64,000 bases of DNA from Schmidtea nova (taxonomy: Eukaryota). Both the position numbers and the translations under genes were made by a program. Position 1 is the stretch's first letter, and each line of letters begins with the position of its first letter. Positions 44,330 to 55,901 of the stretch are shown here, piece by piece. The stretch lies in the NCBI GenBank assembly GCA_044892505.1, contig CM097882.1, positions 25,730,001 to 25,794,000 of the forward strand. The letters run 5' to 3'. Under the pieces are notes generated by a model. That model saw only the letters and a list, made by a program, of their open reading frames with translations. It was not told where the DNA came from and did not search any database.

Positions 44330-46830
44330 GATTCAACCTCAAAATCACATCTTTTTCATTTGGTTAATTGCTTCTTATTACAGAGACGTCAATGAGTTCA
44401 ATGACGTCAATTTGAATTAAAATGTTATGAATAGCCGCATGGCTGCTGTTGATGAGTTTCATGAACCTATTCACGGTTTGGATCATTTACTCATCTAATA
44501 CGCATTTCTCTTTTGGGGAATACATTATTGCATCCGCTAGTGGGCTTTTTTGCGTGAGATCCAGAATTGGTTTTTAATAGAGTTCTTAATCTTTCATCAA
44601 ATGTTTCAATGTGAGTTTTCGTGTCATCTTCAGCTTGGAGAAGAAAGATGAATTTAGAATAACAGAAGATGTTATAGGCCTCGATCTTTTGATGTGCTCT
44701 TGACTTGTTGTGTAGGCTAATTCTGACTGGGAAACTATCTGATTTAGGAGAATTTGCTTTTGATAGTGTTTAAATTTATTTTGAAAACGTAAAAAATTAA
44801 AACCAAGAAAAAAGGCACTTCTAAAAGTCAGATTGAGCTGAAACTTTCAAAATTGACACATAACCCGATTCATCAAAAGAAATTCAAATTTGAAATTAAA
44901 AATAGGTCATCTGCGTAGGCAAGGATGCTTATCTTTTCGGTTGCTATTTCAATGCCAAGGTTTGATTGTATTAGTCTTTGGAGGACATATTCTATACAAA
45001 GACTAAAAATAGTCATTAATAGAGGGCATCCTTATTTAACTCCTCTTGATTGTATAATCTCGTTGGAAATGGTATTACCACTTTTGAAGGTTGAGTAGCA
45101 GTCCCTATAACATTCTTTCAAATTCTCTAGGGTGTTTCTATGGAGACCCATCTTTGATAGAGTGTGCCAGATTATGTCATATGGGATACTTCCAAATGCA
45201 TCTGCAAGATCAAGAAACACAAGGTGAGTTTCTTGTCCTTTGTATCTTTTCCTGTTGATCCTTTCCTTGCAGGCGAGAATAATATAGTTATACTCGTCAC
45301 AGCAATTAGCTTTATTAACAGCCTTTTGCCATTCTGATATAAGGTCGTTTATTCCGATCCATTTTAGAATTCTTTCGTTCATTATCTTCATATATATTCT
45401 GTAGCTAACCGGCATGATTGTTATGGGTCTCCAGTTGGATGTGATATTTGGATGTTCTGTTTTTCCCGGTTTGATAATAAGTTTGGTTTCGTATTTCTTC
45501 CATGAATTTGGGATAGTATTTGAGTTTTTGATTCTATTAAATATAGGATTAAGACATTCTTGTTGATTATACTCTTTCCATTTTCTTAGTGGGATTCTGT
45601 CCTCGTCTGGTCCAGAATCGTCTATATCCAGCATCATATATTTCGGAGTCAGTTATTCTTTGTATGGTTATCCATTCAGGAGCATTCTTTTTAATTTTGA
45701 TTTTCTTTAATGCTGGTATCGGAGGCTCTCTGGTAAAGTAATTGTTCATGGACTCGTTGTAAGGTCTGGTACAACTATTTTGTCGTTAGTTATTTCCTTG
45801 ATTGCTCTCCCACAACTCAGTTTATACAATCTTTGGATTTGGTATGAGCACTGGATTAGCTTTTTCTCGTTTCGGGATTTCCTTTTCGGGATAAGGTCTT
45901 CATTAAAGTAGTTTTCAAACCATTTGAGAACATCATCGATGCTTAATTGATGTAGTTTAAATAGTTGTATTGTTTTTGAAATTTCTTCTTTTCCTTTGAA
46001 TGGTATTTGATCATTTTGTGTTTTCATTGTGTTTTCATTACAAAAACTCCACAATCGTATTCATTATTTTGTTTTGGATATCTCGGTATTTTGAATTCAT
46101 TTATTCCATTATTTGCATTCGCAGTTATTTCTAGAAATTGATCCATCTTTTTTCTGATATGGTTTTTGTCGATGTCATTTATTTGATCATCAGGATCCAT
46201 TATTACGGAGTTCAGTGTTTGTTTATTCCAGTTAATTAGCCATATTGCCATTTGCCAACCAACAATAGTCTAGGTGTAGGCTGTTAAATAATGCAGTTCT
46301 GTTGTGACTGATCAGATGGTTTGCTGTAATTGTGTTAATATAGCAAATGTTGGTATGACTGTTAGGTTGACTATTGACAATAAATTTGATATATATTTCC
46401 ATTGCCGCAAGGGAAAGCGGACTTGATATTGATGGGATGTCTGATTCCATTACTTTATCATTTGACATGTGGATTAGTCTTCTGCACAGCTTCTCATTTT
46501 GATGTGTTTCAATATGACTTTCAGCGTCTTTGGACCAATTTCACATTGGACGCATTTGATAATGATGTCGATTGGTTTAATCCTGTGGCTTCTGTTGAGA
46601 TGTTGAGTAAATTCCATCAATTGTCCATCAAAGGTCATTTCTGCAATTGCGTCAATCATTTATAAGGTGCTCTTTGGATGGAGCAGAAGAGTTTTTCTTC
46701 AAGTATTTCCAGTCATCAGGAATGCTAGTGATTCAAGAAATCTATCCATTTCATTTCGGGTATCTGGAGGCTTTCCAAATGTTGGTTTAGGATTGTTTCA
46801 ATCAGATAAAACACACGGTCCATAAATCCT
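44330..46830 (-). mobile_element. NeSL-like non-LTR retrotransposon remnant: zinc finger(s), Ulp1-like protease, RT
   Basis: KCVQC...KHIKMRSC; PKQNNEYDCGVFV; NWRPITIM; VFLDLADAFGSIP; GVK*GCP; ILAYADDL near 44910; multiple frameshifts. Confidence 0.8.
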
Positions 46831-47337: not shown

Positions 47338-47715
47338 ATGGCACTTTTCACCTTATTCAAAAAACCACAAGCAAAAAGGAATTTAAAAAAAATGGAAGCT
47401 GCACCAATTAAAACCCAACGCAAACCACAAAGTTACCAATTGAATGTTGTTAATAAAAAGAACGCAAATCGTACGAATGAATTCAGTGAGCACAAGAGGC
47501 GATTGAGAAAATCAATCACTCCAGTTATTGCTACAAGCACAAAGATCGATATTTCTACCATTGATATACCAGAGCGCATTAAAGACAGCTATTTCATGAA
47601 GGAAAAGAAGACCAAATCAACTGTGAAATCTGATGATATATCTGCAGCTAAGAAAGAACAATTTGTCTTATTAAATATATTTTCAGCTGCTAAACTAAAA
47701 TTCTTATTATTATGA
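47338..47715 (+). CDS. Basic hypothetical protein (Polinton-associated?)
   Basis: 125-aa ORF with ATG after an AT-rich spacer; no motif recognised. Confidence 0.4.
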   Translation: MALFTLFKKPQAKRNLKKMEAAPIKTQRKPQSYQLNVVNKKNANRTNEFSEHKRRLRKSITPVIATSTKIDISTIDIPERIKDSYFMKEKKTKSTVKSDDISAAKKEQFVLLNIFSAAKLKFLLL

Positions 47716-47876
47716 AAAATTAAAAACTAATGTTTTTTGATAAAAATTTATTAAAATAACAAAGTAAGAAGTTTTCAAAAAACATAAATTTTTAAAAATA
47801 AAACAAGTGAGAATTTATCAACATTTATTAATAAATACACATATATGCGACATCAATGTTATTTATTCGATTCCAT

Positions 47877-48320
47877 CTATCCAATTCTAGCGCTTTTTAT
47901 TTTCCAAATTGGAGACATTGATTCTTTTGGATCGATTTTATATCCTTGGATGGATATATCAATAAACCAATTTTCATTATCCGAATATTCAACTGATTGA
48001 AATGCATCATGAAATTCGGTGTTCCTGTTGTTGATGAATATTGTTTCATTGCAAGATAATTTCTTGTTGATTTTCGTCAACACTTTATTGATTGCAACAA
48101 CATCTTCTTTATAAATCTGACCAATCAAGTTGGAATATTGCGAAGTCGACAGCTTTACCGGATTTGGGACCTTGAAAAAGATTTCGTTTACCAAGAAAAA
48201 CATTTGGTAATCGTGAAACATCTGAACCGGTTGTAAATCAAATTTGTTTTGAATTGATTTGTTATCGTTCCTAACTGGTTTCATTTTAATTGGACTCGAT
48301 TTGATGAAAATATTTTGCAT
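47877..48320 (-). CDS. Hypothetical protein (Polinton-associated?)
   Basis: 147-aa ORF with normal composition; 5' end may be lost in the gap or duplication. Confidence 0.45.
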   Translation of the reverse strand: MQNIFIKSSPIKMKPVRNDNKSIQNKFDLQPVQMFHDYQMFFLVNEIFFKVPNPVKLSTSQYSNLIGQIYKEDVVAINKVLTKINKKLSCNETIFINNRNTEFHDAFQSVEYSDNENWFIDISIQGYKIDPKESMSPIWKIKSARIG

Positions 48321-49210
48321 TTTATGAACAAGACTATTTTTATTCTATTATTTATACTCTTCATTGTCTTTGTGCATCCAATCAAATTTTTGCACGTGTC
48401 TTGCAAATCGATTACACATGTATGCAAGTTGACGATTATCTCTCTACCTCAATTTCTTTCTATTGTAAGTTATTTACATATCTATNNNNNNNNNNNNNNN
48501 NNNNNNNNNNNNNNNNNNNNNNNNNNNNNNNNNNNNNNNNNNNNNNNNNNNNNNNNNNNNNNNNNNNNNNNNNNNNNNNNNNNNNNNNNNNNNNNNNNNN
48601 NNNNNNNNNNNNNNNNNNNNNNACATAAAAAATCAACAAAATTAAAAACTAATGTTTTTTTGTGTTTTGATAAACCTAATATATAAACAATAAAACGACA
48701 AAAGAACATTTTTAAAATAAATATTTATTTATTTACATCAAGCTTTCGTTCATAACGATCCAGCTGATATAAGATTTCCTCGCGATCTTTTAAATTTATA
48801 CTCTTCATTGTCTGTGTGCATCCAATCAAATTTTTGCACGTGTCTTGCAAATCGATTACACATGTATGCAAGTTGACGATTATCTCTCTACCTCAATTTC
48901 TTTCTATTGTAAGTTATTTACATATCTATNNNNNNNNNNNNNNNNNNNNNNNNNNNNNNNNNNNNNNNNNNNNNNNNNNNNNNNNNNNNNNNNNNNNNNN
49001 NNNNNNNNNNNNNNNNNNNNNNNNNNNNNNNNNNNNNNNNNNNNNNNNNNNNNNNNNNNNNNNNNNNNNNNNNNNNNNNNNNNNNNNNNNNNNNNNNNNN
49101 NNNNNNNNACATAAAAAATCAACAAAATTAAAAACTAATGTTTTTTTGTGTTTTGATAAACCTAATATATAAACAATAAAACGACAAAAGAACATTTTTA
49201 AAATAAATAT

Positions 49211-49470
49211 TTATTTATTTACATCAAGCTTTCGTTCATAACGATCCAGCTGATATAAGATTTCCTCGCGATCTTTTAAATATGTCCAATTGGGACAACA
49301 TTTGCAATGAAAGCAGCAAATCGGTTCAATTTTCAACTGATTTTTCTTCCTATGCTCTGTAATGATATCCTTGATATCGATTCCAGTAAGCATAAATATT
49401 TTTACTGGGATCAATTCTGGAGCCCAGTACGTTAAATCCTTCAACCGTTTCGATAAATACTTGGGTAAGT
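49211..49470 (-). CDS. Small Cys-rich hypothetical protein
   Basis: KNLPKYLSKRLKDLTYWAPELIP...ICCFHCKCCPNW; start unresolved. Confidence 0.4.
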
Positions 49471-49648
49471 TCTTCTAAATATAAAATTAATAAAAATTAA
49501 TATATTATTTAAAGATATTTACCGACTGTAGATTTATCTTGCATTTTGATAAAAATAATGAATAATTTACGTGTTTATATATGAAATATAGTAACACACA
49601 ACAACCAATAAAAAACATACACACTCATTACGTATACATTACAAATAC

Positions 49649-50118
49649 TTAGGTAATACTTAGTAAAAAGTTTAGGAATTCTTCCTCATCAATCATCGAT
49701 TTTATTTCGTTAACAATTTGTTCAACCAAATCATGATAATCCAAAGTTTTAATACCAAGTATTACTATTTTGCCACTTGCAAAAACGTTTACACATAATG
49801 GATTAAATTTAGAATATCTCAAAGCTGGAAATATTTCTGGTTCATAAACACAATTAGATTTTTTCAATAATAAATATAAATTAACATGGGATCCTATATC
49901 TGCAGTCACTGTAATTGATTGAATTTGAATATTTTCTATTGGATATTGTAAATCTTCATTTTTAAAGGTTTTTTGCACCCCATAATTTGACATTTACCTG
50001 ATTTGAAAAATATAATCGTATACTTTCCACTTCTATCGACAATTTGTTGAGGTTTCCCCATTGGAAATTGCATGTGCGAAACTGAGCATTTACCTTTATA
50101 ATTTATGTTGGTCAACAT
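49649..50118 (-). pseudogene. TATA-binding-protein-like gene, single frameshift near 49960
   Basis: Repeat 1 TIIFFKSGKCQIMGCK; repeat 2 IQIQSITVTADIG...YEPEIFPALRY...VNVFASGKIVILGIK, matching TBP YEPELFPGLIY...IFVSGKVVLTGAK. Confidence 0.85.
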
Positions 50119-50573
50119 TTATGATGTAATAATAATTTAAATATTTTTTATTCGTGTAAAACAATTAATTAAAACAAATATAAACAATAACAATTTCTTT
50201 AATATTTTAAATGGAATTGAGAAACGATGCAGTATATCAAATTGTCGGTCCAAGTGGAGGTGGAAAAACTTTATTTGTTTGTAAATTATTACAATCAAAA
50301 TTATTCAAATCAAAATTTAATAAAATTTATTGGCATAGGGGAGCTGATGATGAACATGGAATGACTCAAGATCAATTCTGTAAAATTAAAATGACAAAAG
50401 GGATTCGATAAAAACTGATCGTCTAGATTACGAAGTTGTGATGTAATTATTATTGATGATTTGTATCAAGAAGCAAATAAAGAGAAGGATTTCAATAATT
50501 TATTCACAAAAATTGCTAGGCATAAAGGAGTTACAGTTATTTTTATTACTCAGAATTTATTTCATCAGGGTGG

Positions 50574-51013
50574 TGTAATGTTCTGTAGACACACCAATCT
50601 ATCAAATAGTGTTTTGGAGTTTTTATTATTATGTTGATGTATCTCTTGTTTCATTGTATATTCTACACACCATAATAACTCTCGTCGGTAACGTTTGAAT
50701 ATATATTTTTAACTGTATATGTTTATTTATGTCTGTTCGAATTAATAATTACCAATTGTGTTTTCTGTTCGCTGATGATAACATTACATCATTTGATTAG
50801 AGATGTGATTATCATTGAATGCTTTGTCTTATTTATATTTAATGTTATGTAATTAATTAAAGTTATGTGAATTAATGTTATGAAAAAAAAATGTTAAAAA
50901 TCTAGTAATCCTAAATATTTTATTATTTGTTTAAAAAACTTGTTAAGCGGTTAACCCGCACGATATCACAAATAAAAAAATATATTGGTTATCGATTACT
51001 TGTTAATTAAATG

Positions 51014-51057
<44 letters not shown>

Positions 51058-52575
51058 GAAATTCTCGACTTTGATATTCAAAGGTAAAGAAGTTGATGAA
51101 CACTTCAGAAACCACACTCTGATTCATATCAAAAAGTTGCAAACAGAATCCATCAAACTGGCCTTGTTGTTCGACTCAATAATATGTTTATTTTATTCAC
51201 TTTCTAGGATCGGTTCGTTTTATGTCAATGTTTTGCGTTTTACTTGGTACTACGACTATGAGCTTATCTATCCTTGGGTAGCTATCCTAATTGATGTTTT
51301 GCTCACTTTGATCAATGTGTTGGTATCCCTAGTTCATCCAAGTGAAATCGAAAACGTCGTAATTCGGATGTTATTTCAAATTATATATTTCACTGTTGTT
51401 CGAGTAATTCTGACTCTTATTATTTCTAGTTTGCCATACGTAACCAGCTATATGATTGGTGAACCTCTATTTTACATTTGGAGGTACCAAAGTAGATACG
51501 TAACTTTTATTTTATTCGGAATGGTAGATCACTGCTTTTATCATGGTTGCCATTATTTTATCAAAATCATAACATTAATTCCTATGACAGCTTTCACTGC
51601 GTATTCGTTTTTTTTGAAGAGTGTGGCTATCTCAAAGTTATTAGGATCCAGAGGAGTTTAGAGGAATGTACAAGTTACATTCAAATTTTTTACTACTATG
51701 ACAATTGCTTAGCGTATTTATTTTTAACATTTCAATTGCTCGAAATCCTATCAGTAATTTATTTTGTAATTCGACAAAATGAAAAGATTATTCGCGTTCT
51801 TTTCTATGCGGAACGCGAAGCGTCAATAAGAAAGCGAGAATCTAAACGAGCTAAAAAGGTTGCAGAAAATCTCCTATATAACGTAATCCCGGACTTATAC
51901 TGTCCGCGGAATCCAATCGTGATATTTTTACTCATTATTGTACACAGTCATCAAATGTTACAGATTACTTATTCGACCTCCTCATTACTGGTAAAAGTTT
52001 ATTACTACGCGTTATTAAATGGCTGAAGACATTTGGCAATTGTAAAATATTCTGTCAAACAAATATTTGCGCATGTGGGTTGACAAATGTCCTACGCTGT
52101 TGCCAGAACTATCTAGGCGTACAACATGTAAAAACACAAGGATTAAAAATCGCCGTTACTGATATAAAAAAATAACATTAAATATGTGTTTTTATTCAAA
52201 TTATAGAACTATGAGTGAACTAGCATCTGACAATTATATCAGCGCAATCCGAATTATTGGACAAGCATTTTCTAATAAGAAAACCTCCAGTGGAACACTC
52301 CCTTATGAGATCCACCTTGGGGAAGTACCCGACGATTCCGATCGACCGTTGGTTTATCCTGGAATCCATCTTACGTTTCTATTTGGCATGAATGAGTGCA
52401 TGGTAACAAATTTCCGTAAATTGAATACAGCCTATAAATATTCCAAGACAAAAGTATTGTTAAATTTATTTATAAGATTATGTAAGATTAAAAGCGAGTG
52501 AACAAATATAAAATTGATGAATCGGCAACCACACCAAAAATCAGAATACCTTGGTGTGATTTCCGGTTCATCAAA
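50574..52575 (+). mobile_element. 2-kb insertion of unknown class inside the ATPase
   Basis: Flanked by direct repeat GGTGG (50569-50573, 52576-52580); begins TGTAATG; removal restores HQGGSHR in frame. Confidence 0.7.
51056..52026 (+). pseudogene. Multi-pass membrane protein fragment resembling the transmembrane-to-catalytic linker of membrane adenylyl cyclases; no catalytic domain
   Basis: Several hydrophobic segments followed by FVIRQNEKIIRVLFYAEREASIRKRESKRAKKVAENLLYNVIP; frameshift near 51655. Confidence 0.55.
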
Positions 52576-52856
52576 GGTGGTAGTCATCGAACTCGAAATT
52601 TGAATGTTCAATATCTAGTTATTTTTAAAAATCCTAGAGATGCTACAGTTATTGATTTTCTTGCAAGACAAGCTTACCCTAATAATCGGAATTTCTTGAT
52701 CAATGCATTTTAAGATGCAACTAAAATCCCACATGGATATATTTTTCTCGATTTTACTCAACAATGTAGCGATGAATTACGTGTTAGAACTGATATTTTT
52801 AACAAAGAAGGAGCAATGGTTTATAAACAAAGTTAAATTCGTGTTCGAAATTAATC

Positions 52857-53402
52857 ATGAGACTTAAAGCACGAGCTAAACATCCAAAGCTATCAAAACT
52901 AAGAAAAGTTAATAAAAAGAATCGTGAAACATTAATTCCATCTAAAACGAGTTTCACAACTCCGAAAAAATTAATAACCGAAAATTTTCCCAAAATGAAT
53001 CTAATTTCACACAATTCAAAACCCGATACACCAAAGATACCAAAGGCAACTGCAAGTAAAAATTCTAAAAATCAACGCAGTTTTCCATTTTTCAATGCCT
53101 TACTCAAGGCTCCAAGCATTAGAAGAATGAGTATTTTACAATCGTTTCCCAATTATGTTATTGATGATTTACTTGATGTTATAGTGAAAATTGTCAGAGG
53201 TAAAATTAATATCAGTAAATCAAACAAAAATGTATTGAACAAACACAAGAAACCATTATTATCACTCGTAAATACTAAAAATCGAAAACAAATGCGTAAA
53301 ATAATATATAAACAACATGGAGGGTTTATTGCTGCTCTATTACCATTAGCATTATCTTTATTGGGTGGAGCAGGATTACTGGGAAAACCTTCAACATCAT
53401 AA
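52857..53402 (+). CDS. Basic Polinton protein with C-terminal QHGGFIAALLPLALSLLGG motif (putative core or membrane-active virion protein)
   Basis: 181-aa Lys-rich ORF; GG motifs resemble adenain cleavage sites. Confidence 0.7.
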   Translation: MRLKARAKHPKLSKLRKVNKKNRETLIPSKTSFTTPKKLITENFPKMNLISHNSKPDTPKIPKATASKNSKNQRSFPFFNALLKAPSIRRMSILQSFPNYVIDDLLDVIVKIVRGKINISKSNKNVLNKHKKPLLSLVNTKNRKQMRKIIYKQHGGFIAALLPLALSLLGGAGLLGKPSTS

Positions 53403-53479
53403 ACAATGGGACAAACTCCTTTGAGTCATTTATCTAATCTTACATTAAATTTTAAATCTTCTTGTTGTAATGCAGAAGA

Positions 53480-54524
53480 TATGGACAAATCCAAAAGACC
53501 CGGCAGGTTTCGGTGGAGTCGAAAAGCTAAAGAAAAAAGTCCCAAACTCGAAAAAAGAAACTCAAAAATGGTTATCGGGACAACTGGAATACAATCTAAA
53601 CAAACCGGCATTGAAACGATTTCCAACAAGAGCATATTAAACATATGGCATTAATGACTTGTGGCAAATGGATTTGATGGAAATGATTCCCTATTCAAAT
53701 ATTAACAAGGGATATAAATATATTTTAACATGTATCGATGTTTTCAATAGATTTGCTAGGGCTATTCCAACTAAAACAAAGTCTGCAAACGAAATGGCTG
53801 TTGCGATCAAAACAATGTTTGAATCTGATCGTCCAAAGAATTTACAAACTGATTTGGGTAAGAATGTATACTAATTTTATCCGTTTTTAATTATAATTTA
53901 GGTAAAGAATTTTACAATAGTAAAGTCAAAGAAGTTTTGGCCGGGATTAATCACTATTCGGTGTTCTCTCAATTCAAAGCAGCCCATGTTGAAAGATTTA
54001 ATCGTACATTAAGAGATCGACTAAAAAAATATTTTGTGCATCAAGGTAATAAAACATGGATTAATGTACTACTAAAAATAATACATAGTTATAATCATTC
54101 GCCGCATAAAGGAATAAATGGATTGAGACCTATTGATGTTTCAACGAAAAATACTGGATCTCACAAATTAAAAACTAATATAAAGAAACCGAAATATAAA
54201 ATTGGTGATCATGTTCGAATTAGTAAGATTAGCGCTTCGCCATTCATCAAAAATTTTGATAGTAATTGGAGTGATGAGGTATTTCACATCTCAAAAATTA
54301 ATACTATCCAAGATCCTGTCATGTATGTTATTTCTGACTCTGACAATAATGTCGTCAGTGGGAAATTTTATGAACAAGAATTACAAGTTATTCCTCCGCC
54401 AACTGTATTTAGAATTCAAAAAATATTAAAAACTAAAATTGTGGGTAATAATAAACAATACTACGTAAAGTGGCATGGATATCAAAACCCGTCATGGATA
54501 TCATCAAAAGATCTAGTAAAATGA
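53480..54524 (+). pseudogene. Polinton rve integrase with C-terminal chromodomain; one 44-nt intron (53858-53901); 5' part frameshifted
   Basis: WQMDLMEM, IDVFNRFA, LQTDLG^KEFYN, HVERFNRTLR, YYVKWHGY. Confidence 0.92.
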
Positions 54525-55516
54525 ATTTTTATATGATTTTACCAAGTAATAGTTGCCCATTAATTCATCCAGATAATCAAGCTAGTAAATTCATGATCAA
54601 TTTACAAAATACAATTTATTTACGTGGTAATTGGGAAGTTGCATTGCAAGATTTCACATTTGTATATAACAATTTTCCTTATTACAGTCAATGCAAAATT
54701 TACTACACGATAGTTAGAACTGAAACTGTAAATGAATACTTTCAAGTTCAAATTAATTATGAAGATACTCAATATTTGAATGATAAAGTTGAATTACATA
54801 TAGATAAAATATATTTACATATAAATTGTGATATAACACCATTTTATTTTAAGTTTGAAAATATAGAAGATGCGAATAAATTTGGGTTTAATGAATTAAA
54901 AATCATTAGCAACAATTCAACTTATAAAATGCTTATTCCTTCTGATTATTCATCAGAGAAAATGCATATATCAATAAGTTATGATTTAGAAACAGATTTA
55001 CTTTATGAATTCCAAGATGAAATATACATGACAAAAGTTGAAGATTTATATAATTATTTGTCAATTTTCTGTTCTCATATATTTCAAGGTGTTGAAATTA
55101 TTGACAATGTATTCAAATTTAAACTGAAAGACGAAGTGAAAGAAGTTATATTTGATCAAAGACTGATCAATACACTTGGATTAAAATATGAAAAATATCA
55201 AGATAGAGAAGTTAAAGGAATTCGCAAAGCCAAATTATTTAATCATCATCAACAAATGTTTATTTACAGTAACATTATTGAACCAATTATTGTCGGTGAT
55301 TCTCTAGTTCCTTTACTGAAATCAGTTTGGATTAATAAATATGAACAAGATGAAGTAGTACAAATTGTTGTTGATAATCCCATGTATTTATCGCTTTCAA
55401 ATTCATGTATAAACAATATTGAGATTAATATTCGTGACGATAGTGGAAAGCTTATCAACTTTTCAAAAGATTCAAAAACACATTTGACATTACATTTTCG
55501 TAAATTAGATGATTAA
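54521..55516 (+). CDS. Minor capsid (penton-like) protein
   Basis: MNFYMILPSNS...WEVAL...FIYSNIIEPIIVGDSLVPLL...IEINIRDDSG...LTLHFR; ATGA overlap with the integrase stop. Confidence 0.85.
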   Translation: MNFYMILPSNSCPLIHPDNQASKFMINLQNTIYLRGNWEVALQDFTFVYNNFPYYSQCKIYYTIVRTETVNEYFQVQINYEDTQYLNDKVELHIDKIYLHINCDITPFYFKFENIEDANKFGFNELKIISNNSTYKMLIPSDYSSEKMHISISYDLETDLLYEFQDEIYMTKVEDLYNYLSIFCSHIFQGVEIIDNVFKFKLKDEVKEVIFDQRLINTLGLKYEKYQDREVKGIRKAKLFNHHQQMFIYSNIIEPIIVGDSLVPLLKSVWINKYEQDEVVQIVVDNPMYLSLSNSCINNIEINIRDDSGKLINFSKDSKTHLTLHFRKLDD

Positions 55517-55901
55517 TCCGGACATAATTTCACTGTATAGTAACGTACAAACTGGTGAGGAGATACCATATTTTGTTGGGAAACAGTATGGATCTGGTTG
55601 GTTAAGGACTATTGGGCGATTTGCACTCCCAATTCTTAAACGATTAGGTAGTTTTGGTTTGAAAACTGCCAAAGATGTGATCATGAATGATCAGAAAATA
55701 TTCCCATCATTGAAAACAAATGCATTGTCTGCTATTGGCAAAGTACTGCCTACTGTGATTAGTATGATTCCTGGTGTAACAAGTATGTTTAATAAAGATG
55801 AACCTGAACCTGAACCGGAACAAGTGGGGCCTAGACGTAAAAAACATCGAAGGTATATAAACAATAGAATGAAAGGACATGGAACTATATTTGCAAAATG
55901 A
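55509..55901 (+). CDS. Conserved Polinton virion protein upstream of the MCP, with amphipathic GSGWLRTIGRFALPILK segment
   Basis: QYGSGWLRTIGRFALPILKRLG motif; position between minor and major capsid genes. Confidence 0.7.
   Translation: MINPDIISLYSNVQTGEEIPYFVGKQYGSGWLRTIGRFALPILKRLGSFGLKTAKDVIMNDQKIFPSLKTNALSAIGKVLPTVISMIPGVTSMFNKDEPEPEPEQVGPRRKKHRRYINNRMKGHGTIFAK

Follow-up and report, generated by a model that had tools for sequence, protein, structure and literature searches.

A TBP gene in a Polinton of Schmidtea nova

The window analysed here is a stretch of 64,000 nucleotides (nt) of the Schmidtea nova genome (assembly GCA_044892505.1, contig CM097882.1, positions 25,730,001 to 25,794,000 of the forward strand), and all positions below are window positions unless a locus is named. 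It contains a mobile element carrying a compact gene for a TATA-box-binding protein (TBP), which occupies 49649..50118 on the minus strand (start 50118, end 49649; about 156 codons) and has neither an intron nor an N-terminal extension. This gene lies head-to-head with that of an A32-like packaging ATPase on the plus strand, whose ATG stands at 50211, so that a spacer of 92 nt (50119..50210) separates the two starts. Coordinates and a Pfam match confirm this arrangement as it had been described in an earlier note on the same DNA, apart from the right end of the feature, which was placed there at 50211, the first position of the ATPase, and thus outside the TBP gene, whose right-hand limit is 50118. 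Judged by its genes, the element is a Polinton/Maverick, with an approximate extent of 47716..62850 as matched by other copies and with ends in simple repeats.

In the window copy, the TBP frame breaks near 49,960 (about codon 54), where the first third and the remainder of the gene pass into different frames, leaving a longest open reading frame (ORF) of 114 amino acids (aa). The Pfam TBP family (PF00352) matches the natural open copy L030 at E=1e-17 (64.2 bits against a cut-off of 22.9) and the 114-aa ORF of the window at E=2.7e-14, each match being confined to the second repeat. The break falls in a homopolymer run and is common to the window copy and 18 other loci; it may reflect shared descent, recurrent slippage or an assembly error, each of which the sequence fits. 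The ATPase (50211..52836, end approximate; 207 aa in other copies) is likewise disrupted: its frame shifts near 50,400, and a 2-kb insertion at 50575..52575 interrupts it. The first 400 nt of this insertion are found elsewhere in the genome, on several occasions as pairs about 7 kb apart in the fashion of long terminal repeats (LTRs); the ATPase of locus L004 matches Pox_A32 at E=1.6e-6, above the cut-off. The window copy of the element is a dead relic.

At least 150 copies of the TBP gene are present in the host genome at 93-100% identity, these being the best 150 of 17,290 first-look candidates, a figure that is not a copy number, and by hand count the 156-aa frame is open in about 111 of the 150. 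Two further Polinton subfamilies of the same genome carry TBP genes that are 57-59% identical and also stand head-to-head with the ATPase, so that all three subfamilies seen in this genome possess the gene, and its presence in other copies, which the earlier note had made a test of its reading, is established.

A conserved accessory gene of Polintons

With L030 as query, 134 homologues were retrieved, mostly of 145-160 aa and mostly metagenomic, and a TBP profile search yielded 62 representatives at E<=1e-30. Hand counts place a core Polinton gene in 35 of 80 metagenome TBP loci and in 18 of the 20 loci of at least 4 kb; one of two accessory neighbours occurs in 20 more of the 80, and five resemble ordinary TBP matches. 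A scan of prokaryote genomes gave a single weak partial match, and an Atlas search with a TBP homologue returned TBP clusters only. A conserved head-to-head layout of TBP and ATPase was considered and rejected, because only one of the 24 metagenome loci with both genes shows it directly, the others being divergent at a distance (one), convergent (one) or co-oriented (21); the ATPase linkage stressed in the earlier note therefore holds as a head-to-head pair in the subfamilies of the host genome but not in the metagenomic loci at large.

Ratios of nonsynonymous to synonymous substitution (dN/dS, Nei-Gojobori) have a median of 0.31 and a maximum of 0.63 for TBP, over the 90 of 1275 mutually dependent pairs with 0.1<dS<1.5, and stand at 0.15 for the ATPase over 16 of 105 pairs; these values indicate that the TBP family is under purifying selection. 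In a phylogenetic tree, all Polinton-type TBPs fall on one side of a branch supported at 94 by the Shimodaira-Hasegawa-like approximate likelihood ratio test (SH-aLRT), apart from host, protist and archaeal-type TBPs. This is a quick, midpoint-rooted tree with long branches and six IMG/VR rows, four of them different, in which row P0179 is mislabelled canonical. With its few rows from nucleocytoplasmic large DNA viruses (NCLDVs), it did not place Polinton TBPs among those of NCLDVs and lends no support to the bearing on the Polinton-NCLDV relationship that the earlier note had anticipated; structural matches of the Polinton TBP to NCLDV TBPs are 10-20% identical.

These data leave next to no credence to the idea that the gene is a captured retrocopy of a host TBP, carried as a functionless passenger. 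The frameshift at one and the same codon in the window and 18 other loci would suit such a passenger, as would the existence of intronless TBP paralogues in the host. Against this stand an identity of 27% to the two host TBP genes compared, a position on the opposite side of the supported branch, a dN/dS of about 0.3, the open frame in most of the best genome copies and retention of the gene across diverse Polintons. The retrocopy reading was rejected by the selection and distribution data; near identity to host TBP or a TBP-related factor (TRF) was what the earlier note had named as counting against its own reading. TBP is a real, conserved accessory gene of Polintons.

Fold and DNA face

The predicted structure (predicted local distance difference test, pLDDT, 94.7) aligns with human, yeast and archaeal TBP across both lobes, with Z 12.7 and a root-mean-square deviation (rmsd) of 2.4-2.6 Å (VIA). 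The top three structural rows align 143-145 residues, the best non-TBP row reaches Z 6.6, and model residues 1-144 were placed on residues 164-337 of a TBP chain (Z 12.7, rmsd 2.6 Å; VIA). The compact two-repeat protein proposed in the earlier note thus stands for the open copies, with both lobes aligned and a length of about 156 aa, but not for the frameshifted window copy. Helices of four or more residues are absent from residues 1-61, and the N-lobe strands are kept. The segments holding helices H1 and H2 measure 34 versus 47 and 19 versus 32 residues when compared with human TBP, and the family medians are 37 and 19 versus 47 and 32 (76 of 100 sequences measurable).

In human numbering, 96-101 of 101 family members retain the equivalents of N167, F214, F288, F305, E284 and E286, and that of P289 is also kept. 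At the two stirrup glutamates, one position is E in 96 and D in five, and the other is E in 100. Among the intercalating phenylalanines, which the earlier note had singled out, three of four (F214, F288 and F305) are therefore kept, but the equivalent of F197, located by sequence alignment via full-length relatives, is Pro in 100 of 101. Seven further substitutions, V169->N, V220->R, T222->M, N257->S, I292->R, V301->C and L303->N, occur in 97-101 of 101, with V220->R, T222->M, I292->R, V301->C and L303->N each in 100 or 101; we take all seven positions to face DNA.

A wider group of 160-180-aa TBPs, which includes four Polinton-linked loci, keeps longer N-lobe segments; 33-36 of its 36 members show F197->P, V220->R, T222->M and L303->N. 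Among full-length TBPs, Polinton linkage is established for the L084/L091/L094/L098 group alone, and a narrower alignment search for the surroundings of the most distant ones found nothing. Since the full-length relatives share the face changes and fall on the same side of the tree, the changes to the DNA face likely preceded the loss of the N-lobe helices.

A putative promoter word before the late-block genes

Stretches of 100 nt upstream of gene starts were compared, after thinning out near-copies and doubtful starts and with expectations taken from shuffles; the late-block starts counted were those of the ATPase, orf52857, the likely minor capsid protein, orf55509, the major capsid protein, the protease and orf57572. 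The word ATAAAC occurs in sense orientation before 55 of 60 such starts and once in antisense, against an expectation of about 7, and 32 of its 61 occurrences lie 30-40 nt from the ATG, with a peak at 31-41 nt. Only 3 of 37 TBP starts and none of 10 orf47877 starts have it upstream. TBP starts are instead preceded by canonical TATAWAWR in 19 of 37 cases (5.4 expected) and by CCAAT in 12 (5.7 expected), and in many of them an initiator-like TCA word comes some 30 nt further on; no initiator signal is visible downstream of the late word. In a subfamily added later, the word precedes all seven listed late-block starts and neither TBP nor the DNA polymerase B gene (polB). The Polintons carrying it have capsids that are 27-59% identical to each other.

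It is highly improbable that the word is a host Forkhead site unrelated to TBP. ATAAACA does fit the Forkhead consensus RYAAAYA, but YATAAACR, counted over 15 loci, occurs 112 times on the late-gene strand and six times on the other, while Forkhead-type GTAAAYA in the same loci shows no strand bias (39 versus 47). The distance to the ATG is fixed, and the base before ATAAAC is T or C in 49 of 54 cases, which extends the word into a TATA box. On the strand bias, the fixed distance and this T/C preference, the Forkhead reading was rejected.

In the window, the word lies at 50179, 52822, 53398, 54451 (ATAAACA only), 55408, 55856 and 57550, with a few more occurrences away from starts, and all genes that follow it lie on the plus strand. 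TATAAACA at 50179..50186 (+), 32 nt before the ATG, is the putative late promoter of the ATPase, and the same box at 52822..52829 (+) stands 35 nt before orf52857 (52857..53402), which encodes a basic, clade-conserved protein of 181 aa without a Pfam match. CATAAACA precedes a retroviral-type integrase with a chromodomain (box and gene 53398..54524), which lies in two frames in the window copy and matches rve at E=2e-9 on L162; the matches of the window piece to rve_3 and chromo stay under the cut-off. ATAAACA lies 43 nt upstream of the gene at 54494..55516, whose 340-aa product is by place and size likely the minor capsid protein. Further copies of TATAAACA are found 101 nt upstream of the gene for a conserved 130-aa protein, orf55509 (55509..55901), and 42 nt before the ATG of the major capsid protein (box and gene 55856..57102; two frames in the window copy). 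The L162 homologue of this capsid protein is modelled (pLDDT 76) as a double jelly-roll fold that matches the capsids of iridovirus, PBCV-1, mavirus and Sputnik (E 3e-14 to 6e-11). An open stretch of an adenovirus-type cysteine protease follows at 57201..57470 (Peptidase_C5, E=1.6e-5, above cut-off), and then TATAAACA with orf57572 (together 57550..58006; 144 aa, no Pfam match), a homologue of which is the immediate upstream neighbour of TBP in many relatives.

A proposed late transcription factor

We consider it rather probable that the Polinton TBP is a late transcription factor acting with TFIIB and RNA polymerase II (Pol II) of the host. Its predicted target is (T/C)ATAAAC(A/G) before the capsid, packaging, protease and integrase genes, and the element would likely turn on its capsid, packaging and integrase genes itself with host Pol II, in a herpesvirus-like manner. 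The earlier note had suggested a viral factor that redirects the host polymerase, and this suggestion has indirect backing in the element's own promoter word and in the retained stirrup for TFIIB.

In the proposed sequence of events, the TBP gene would be transcribed early by host TBP from a canonical TATA/initiator promoter, after which the viral TBP would read the variant word through its altered face, the N-lobe changes lying on the side that meets box position 7. It is the phenylalanine pair of the N-lobe that contacts box positions 7 and 8, and the N-lobe is also the lobe in which F197 is replaced and V220 has become Arg. The insertion of one TBP phenylalanine pair between these positions is described in the available part of PMC1935006, which also gives a moderate-frequency eukaryotic TATA consensus, YWTAWADN, that excludes C at position 7, the base which the late word, read as a TATA box, has there. 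The kept acidic stirrup would then dock host TFIIB, the likely adaptor because the stirrup glutamates are kept and no TFIIB was found in the element: none of 3376 six-frame peptides from 87 Polinton loci matched, and a host exon that itself matches animal TFIIBs was detected as a control, although a strongly diverged TFIIB could escape and many of the loci are incomplete. Finally, loss of the N-lobe helices would strip the surface used by Mot1, TAF1, TFIIA and Brf1 and so bypass host control. The basic patch of N-lobe H2 binds these four proteins (PMC7221094, in part); in the model, H2 and its patch are absent, and the segment is 13 residues shorter.

Several points weigh against this model. 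The word was first spotted by eye in the same data in which it was later counted, and the loci are related, so that the counts are not independent. No canonical TATA box precedes 18 of the 37 TBP starts, and none was seen before TBP in the window or in L162. Scans of IMG/VR for a Polinton without TBP as a control gave no loci with ATPase or integrase, and with polB gave only two unrelated elements; one of these, L165, in which ATAAAC stands ahead of 2 of 10 starts (10 and 97 nt away), is too remote to serve as a control. Of the intercalating phenylalanines, one has gone, and viral TBPs are nearly always paired with a viral TFIIB (PMC7221094, in part), of which none was found in the Polinton loci. 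Cellular TBP can moreover bind the C-variant box through Hoogsteen pairing (PMC4402545, in part), and wild-type TBP has been crystallised on a C(-25) box variant (title of PDB 1qn3).

Because cellular TBP can bind such a box, one rival stays alive, unlikely as it is: host TBP itself would read the word, and the viral TBP would be a competitor, sequestering TFIIB or occupying host promoters, or a mere booster. The kept acidic TFIIB stirrup and the binding of host TBP to position-7 C boxes in crystals agree with this account. A decoy would have no need, however, of near-invariant new residues on the DNA face, and the word retains a C that YWTAWADN (PMC1935006, in part) excludes, in elements whose capsids have diverged as widely as noted above.

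It is quite unlikely that word and TBP serve the RNA polymerase of a helper large DNA virus, in the way that virophage promoters match those of their giant virus. NCLDV TBPs are the nearest viral structural matches, and helper-matched promoters of virophages as well as of PLVs (polinton-like viruses) are treated in the literature; but many TBP genes have host-type TATA, initiator and CCAAT signals, and the TFIIB-binding glutamates are of host type, at a position only about 40% conserved in other viral TBPs (PMC7221094, in part). A protein that serves to bend or hold DNA in replication, integration or packaging, with no role in transcription, is very unlikely. Its proximity to the ATPase in many loci and the loss of one Phe and two helices would be compatible with such a role, yet the position of TBP varies between loci, the word stands at promoter distance ahead of genes, and glutamates whose only known role is TFIIB binding are kept in 96-100 of 101 sequences.

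Taken further, the late-factor model would describe a Polinton clade whose early-late programme is run by a single orthogonal TBP of 17 kDa, reading (T/C)ATAAAC via host TFIIB and Pol II and having shed its N-lobe control surface stepwise; the chances of this fuller scheme appear evenly balanced. If true, it would be the smallest known route to a new core-promoter specificity for host Pol II, independent of herpesviruses, and strong evidence that these Polintons are viruses under regulation and not just passive transposons. In animal elements, a dedicated TBP with a matching word on virion and integrase genes bears on the control of Polinton capsid genes and on the existence of a viral cycle, and makes an early-late cascade testable. 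The full-length and reduced TBPs, which share face changes and word, would show which parts of TBP are dispensable, while the family as a whole would illustrate retuning of the saddle to C at position 7 and might provide an orthogonal promoter system.

Further genes of the element and its surroundings

The C-terminal part of a protein-primed DNA polymerase B lies at 60287..61696 (+) in the window copy, which is missing about 2.2 kb of polB that other copies have. Its pieces are 40-43% identical to the polymerase of L094, which matches PF03175 at E=1.9e-21; PF03175 gave no match on the window pieces or on the L163 polymerase themselves. At the other end of the element, orf47877 (47877..48320, -; 147 aa) is a neighbour of TBP kept in one group of relatives and is without the late word. 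Of the terminal inverted repeats and 6-bp target duplication of a Polinton, the only trace is that the region at the left end of copy L133 matches, in both orientations and within simple repeats, the right end of the window element; no clean boundaries or duplicated target could be defined there.

Directly downstream of TBP in the subfamilies of the host genome lies a gene (window 49211-49474, -; L125:2052-2558; L162:3503-4039) with a CxxxCxxC motif and an acidic tail, without a Pfam match or late word and decayed in the window; it is a candidate early regulator. An internal tandem duplication of about 490 bp (48300-49280) is also found downstream of TBP in the window copy. In other TBP-bearing Polintons, the L094 group (also L084, L091, L098 and L099), which has a full-length TBP and still uses the late word, carries phospholipase A2-like and C2H2 zinc-finger genes and, in some members, a KilA-N gene. 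L058:1918-3330, L068 and L075 encode a protein of leucine-rich repeats (LRR_8, E=1e-16) whose N-terminus is hydrophobic, and in the IMG/VR contigs L112:869-2566 and L114 a TBP-like domain opens a basic protein of 565 aa.

Outside the element, an ORF at 47338-47715 (+), which matches ribosomal protein L6e (E=4.6e-8), adjoins its left end. A decayed non-LTR retrotransposon at 44000-46540 (-) has a reverse transcriptase (PF00078, E=1.6e-12) with open stretches upstream, one of which contains what we take to be a protease-like motif. A polB fragment of a Polinton of another subfamily (41900-42400, with an endonuclease VII-like domain) lies among repeats of 60-140 bp at 40800-43200.

Among the host genes, L116, L117 and L120 represent two intron-containing TBP genes, L120 being a near-duplicate of L117, truncated, inverted and about 11 kb away. 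L118:1207-1818 (-) and L119:1285-1737 (-) are intronless, divergent TBP paralogues, which the tree joins as a pair with a support of 99, and are possibly tissue-specific retrogenes; the L118 paralogue is without both N-lobe phenylalanines. At least four genes of the TFIIB family are present, comprising TFIIB itself (L128), the apparently Brf-like L126 and L130, and a divergent TFIIB-like gene (L129) about 107 kb from L128.

Comparison with known systems

Polintons, Mavericks and adintoviruses share protein-primed polB, integrase, ATPase, protease and a double jelly-roll capsid with the present element (PMC8502044, in part). In the parts available of Starrett et al. 2021 (PMC8502044 and its preprint), "TBP" appears as a figure-legend label, its sole mention in the main text, with no family, fold, promoter word or mechanism. 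This label is the one direct trace found in the accessible literature on TBP or promoters of Polintons, Mavericks or adintoviruses; preprint supplements, Repbase reports and subscription papers may describe the gene. One supplementary file of the same study contained no TBP match, and TBP is not mentioned in the main text, as far as available, of a 2026 PLV survey (10.64898/2026.06.19.733378) or of PMC6431247.

With cellular and archaeal TBPs (PF00352; PDB 7egb_P, 7o4i_O and 2z8u), the Polinton protein has the two-lobed saddle in common, over 141-146 aligned residues. It differs from them in an N-lobe about 25 residues shorter and without predicted helices, in Pro at the F197 equivalent, in a polar DNA face and in an identity of only 23-29%.

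NCLDVs with TBP-TFIIB systems mostly encode their own RNA polymerase. Their TBPs likewise do not have the eukaryotic regulatory patch of the N-lobe; in contrast to the 87 Polinton loci, where no TFIIB was found, NCLDVs mostly encode their own (PMC7221094, in part, where the main text does not contain the word Polinton).

The likeness to the viral TBPs of beta- and gammaherpesviruses, namely ORF24 of KSHV (Kaposi's sarcoma-associated herpesvirus), BcRF1 of Epstein-Barr virus (EBV) and UL87 of human cytomegalovirus (HCMV), which act at TATT late promoters, would be one of mode of action; in structure, EBV BcRF1 matches the Polinton TBP weakly (E=5.9e-4). KSHV ORF24 is described as a viral TBP with a polar DNA face that uses a TATTWAA variant at late genes together with host Pol II; it is a large protein with four Phe, no TFIIB glutamates, a Pol II-binding domain of its own and a need for five viral partners (10.1101/2025.08.25.672222, in part). 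The Polinton TBP differs in its 156 aa, in its kept glutamates and in that no partner has been identified, but it appears to share with the herpesviruses a private TATA variant on late genes, as the 55 of 60 late-block starts against 3 of 37 TBP starts suggest. The Polinton TBP and its late-promoter model are thus a variation on the viral-TBP theme.
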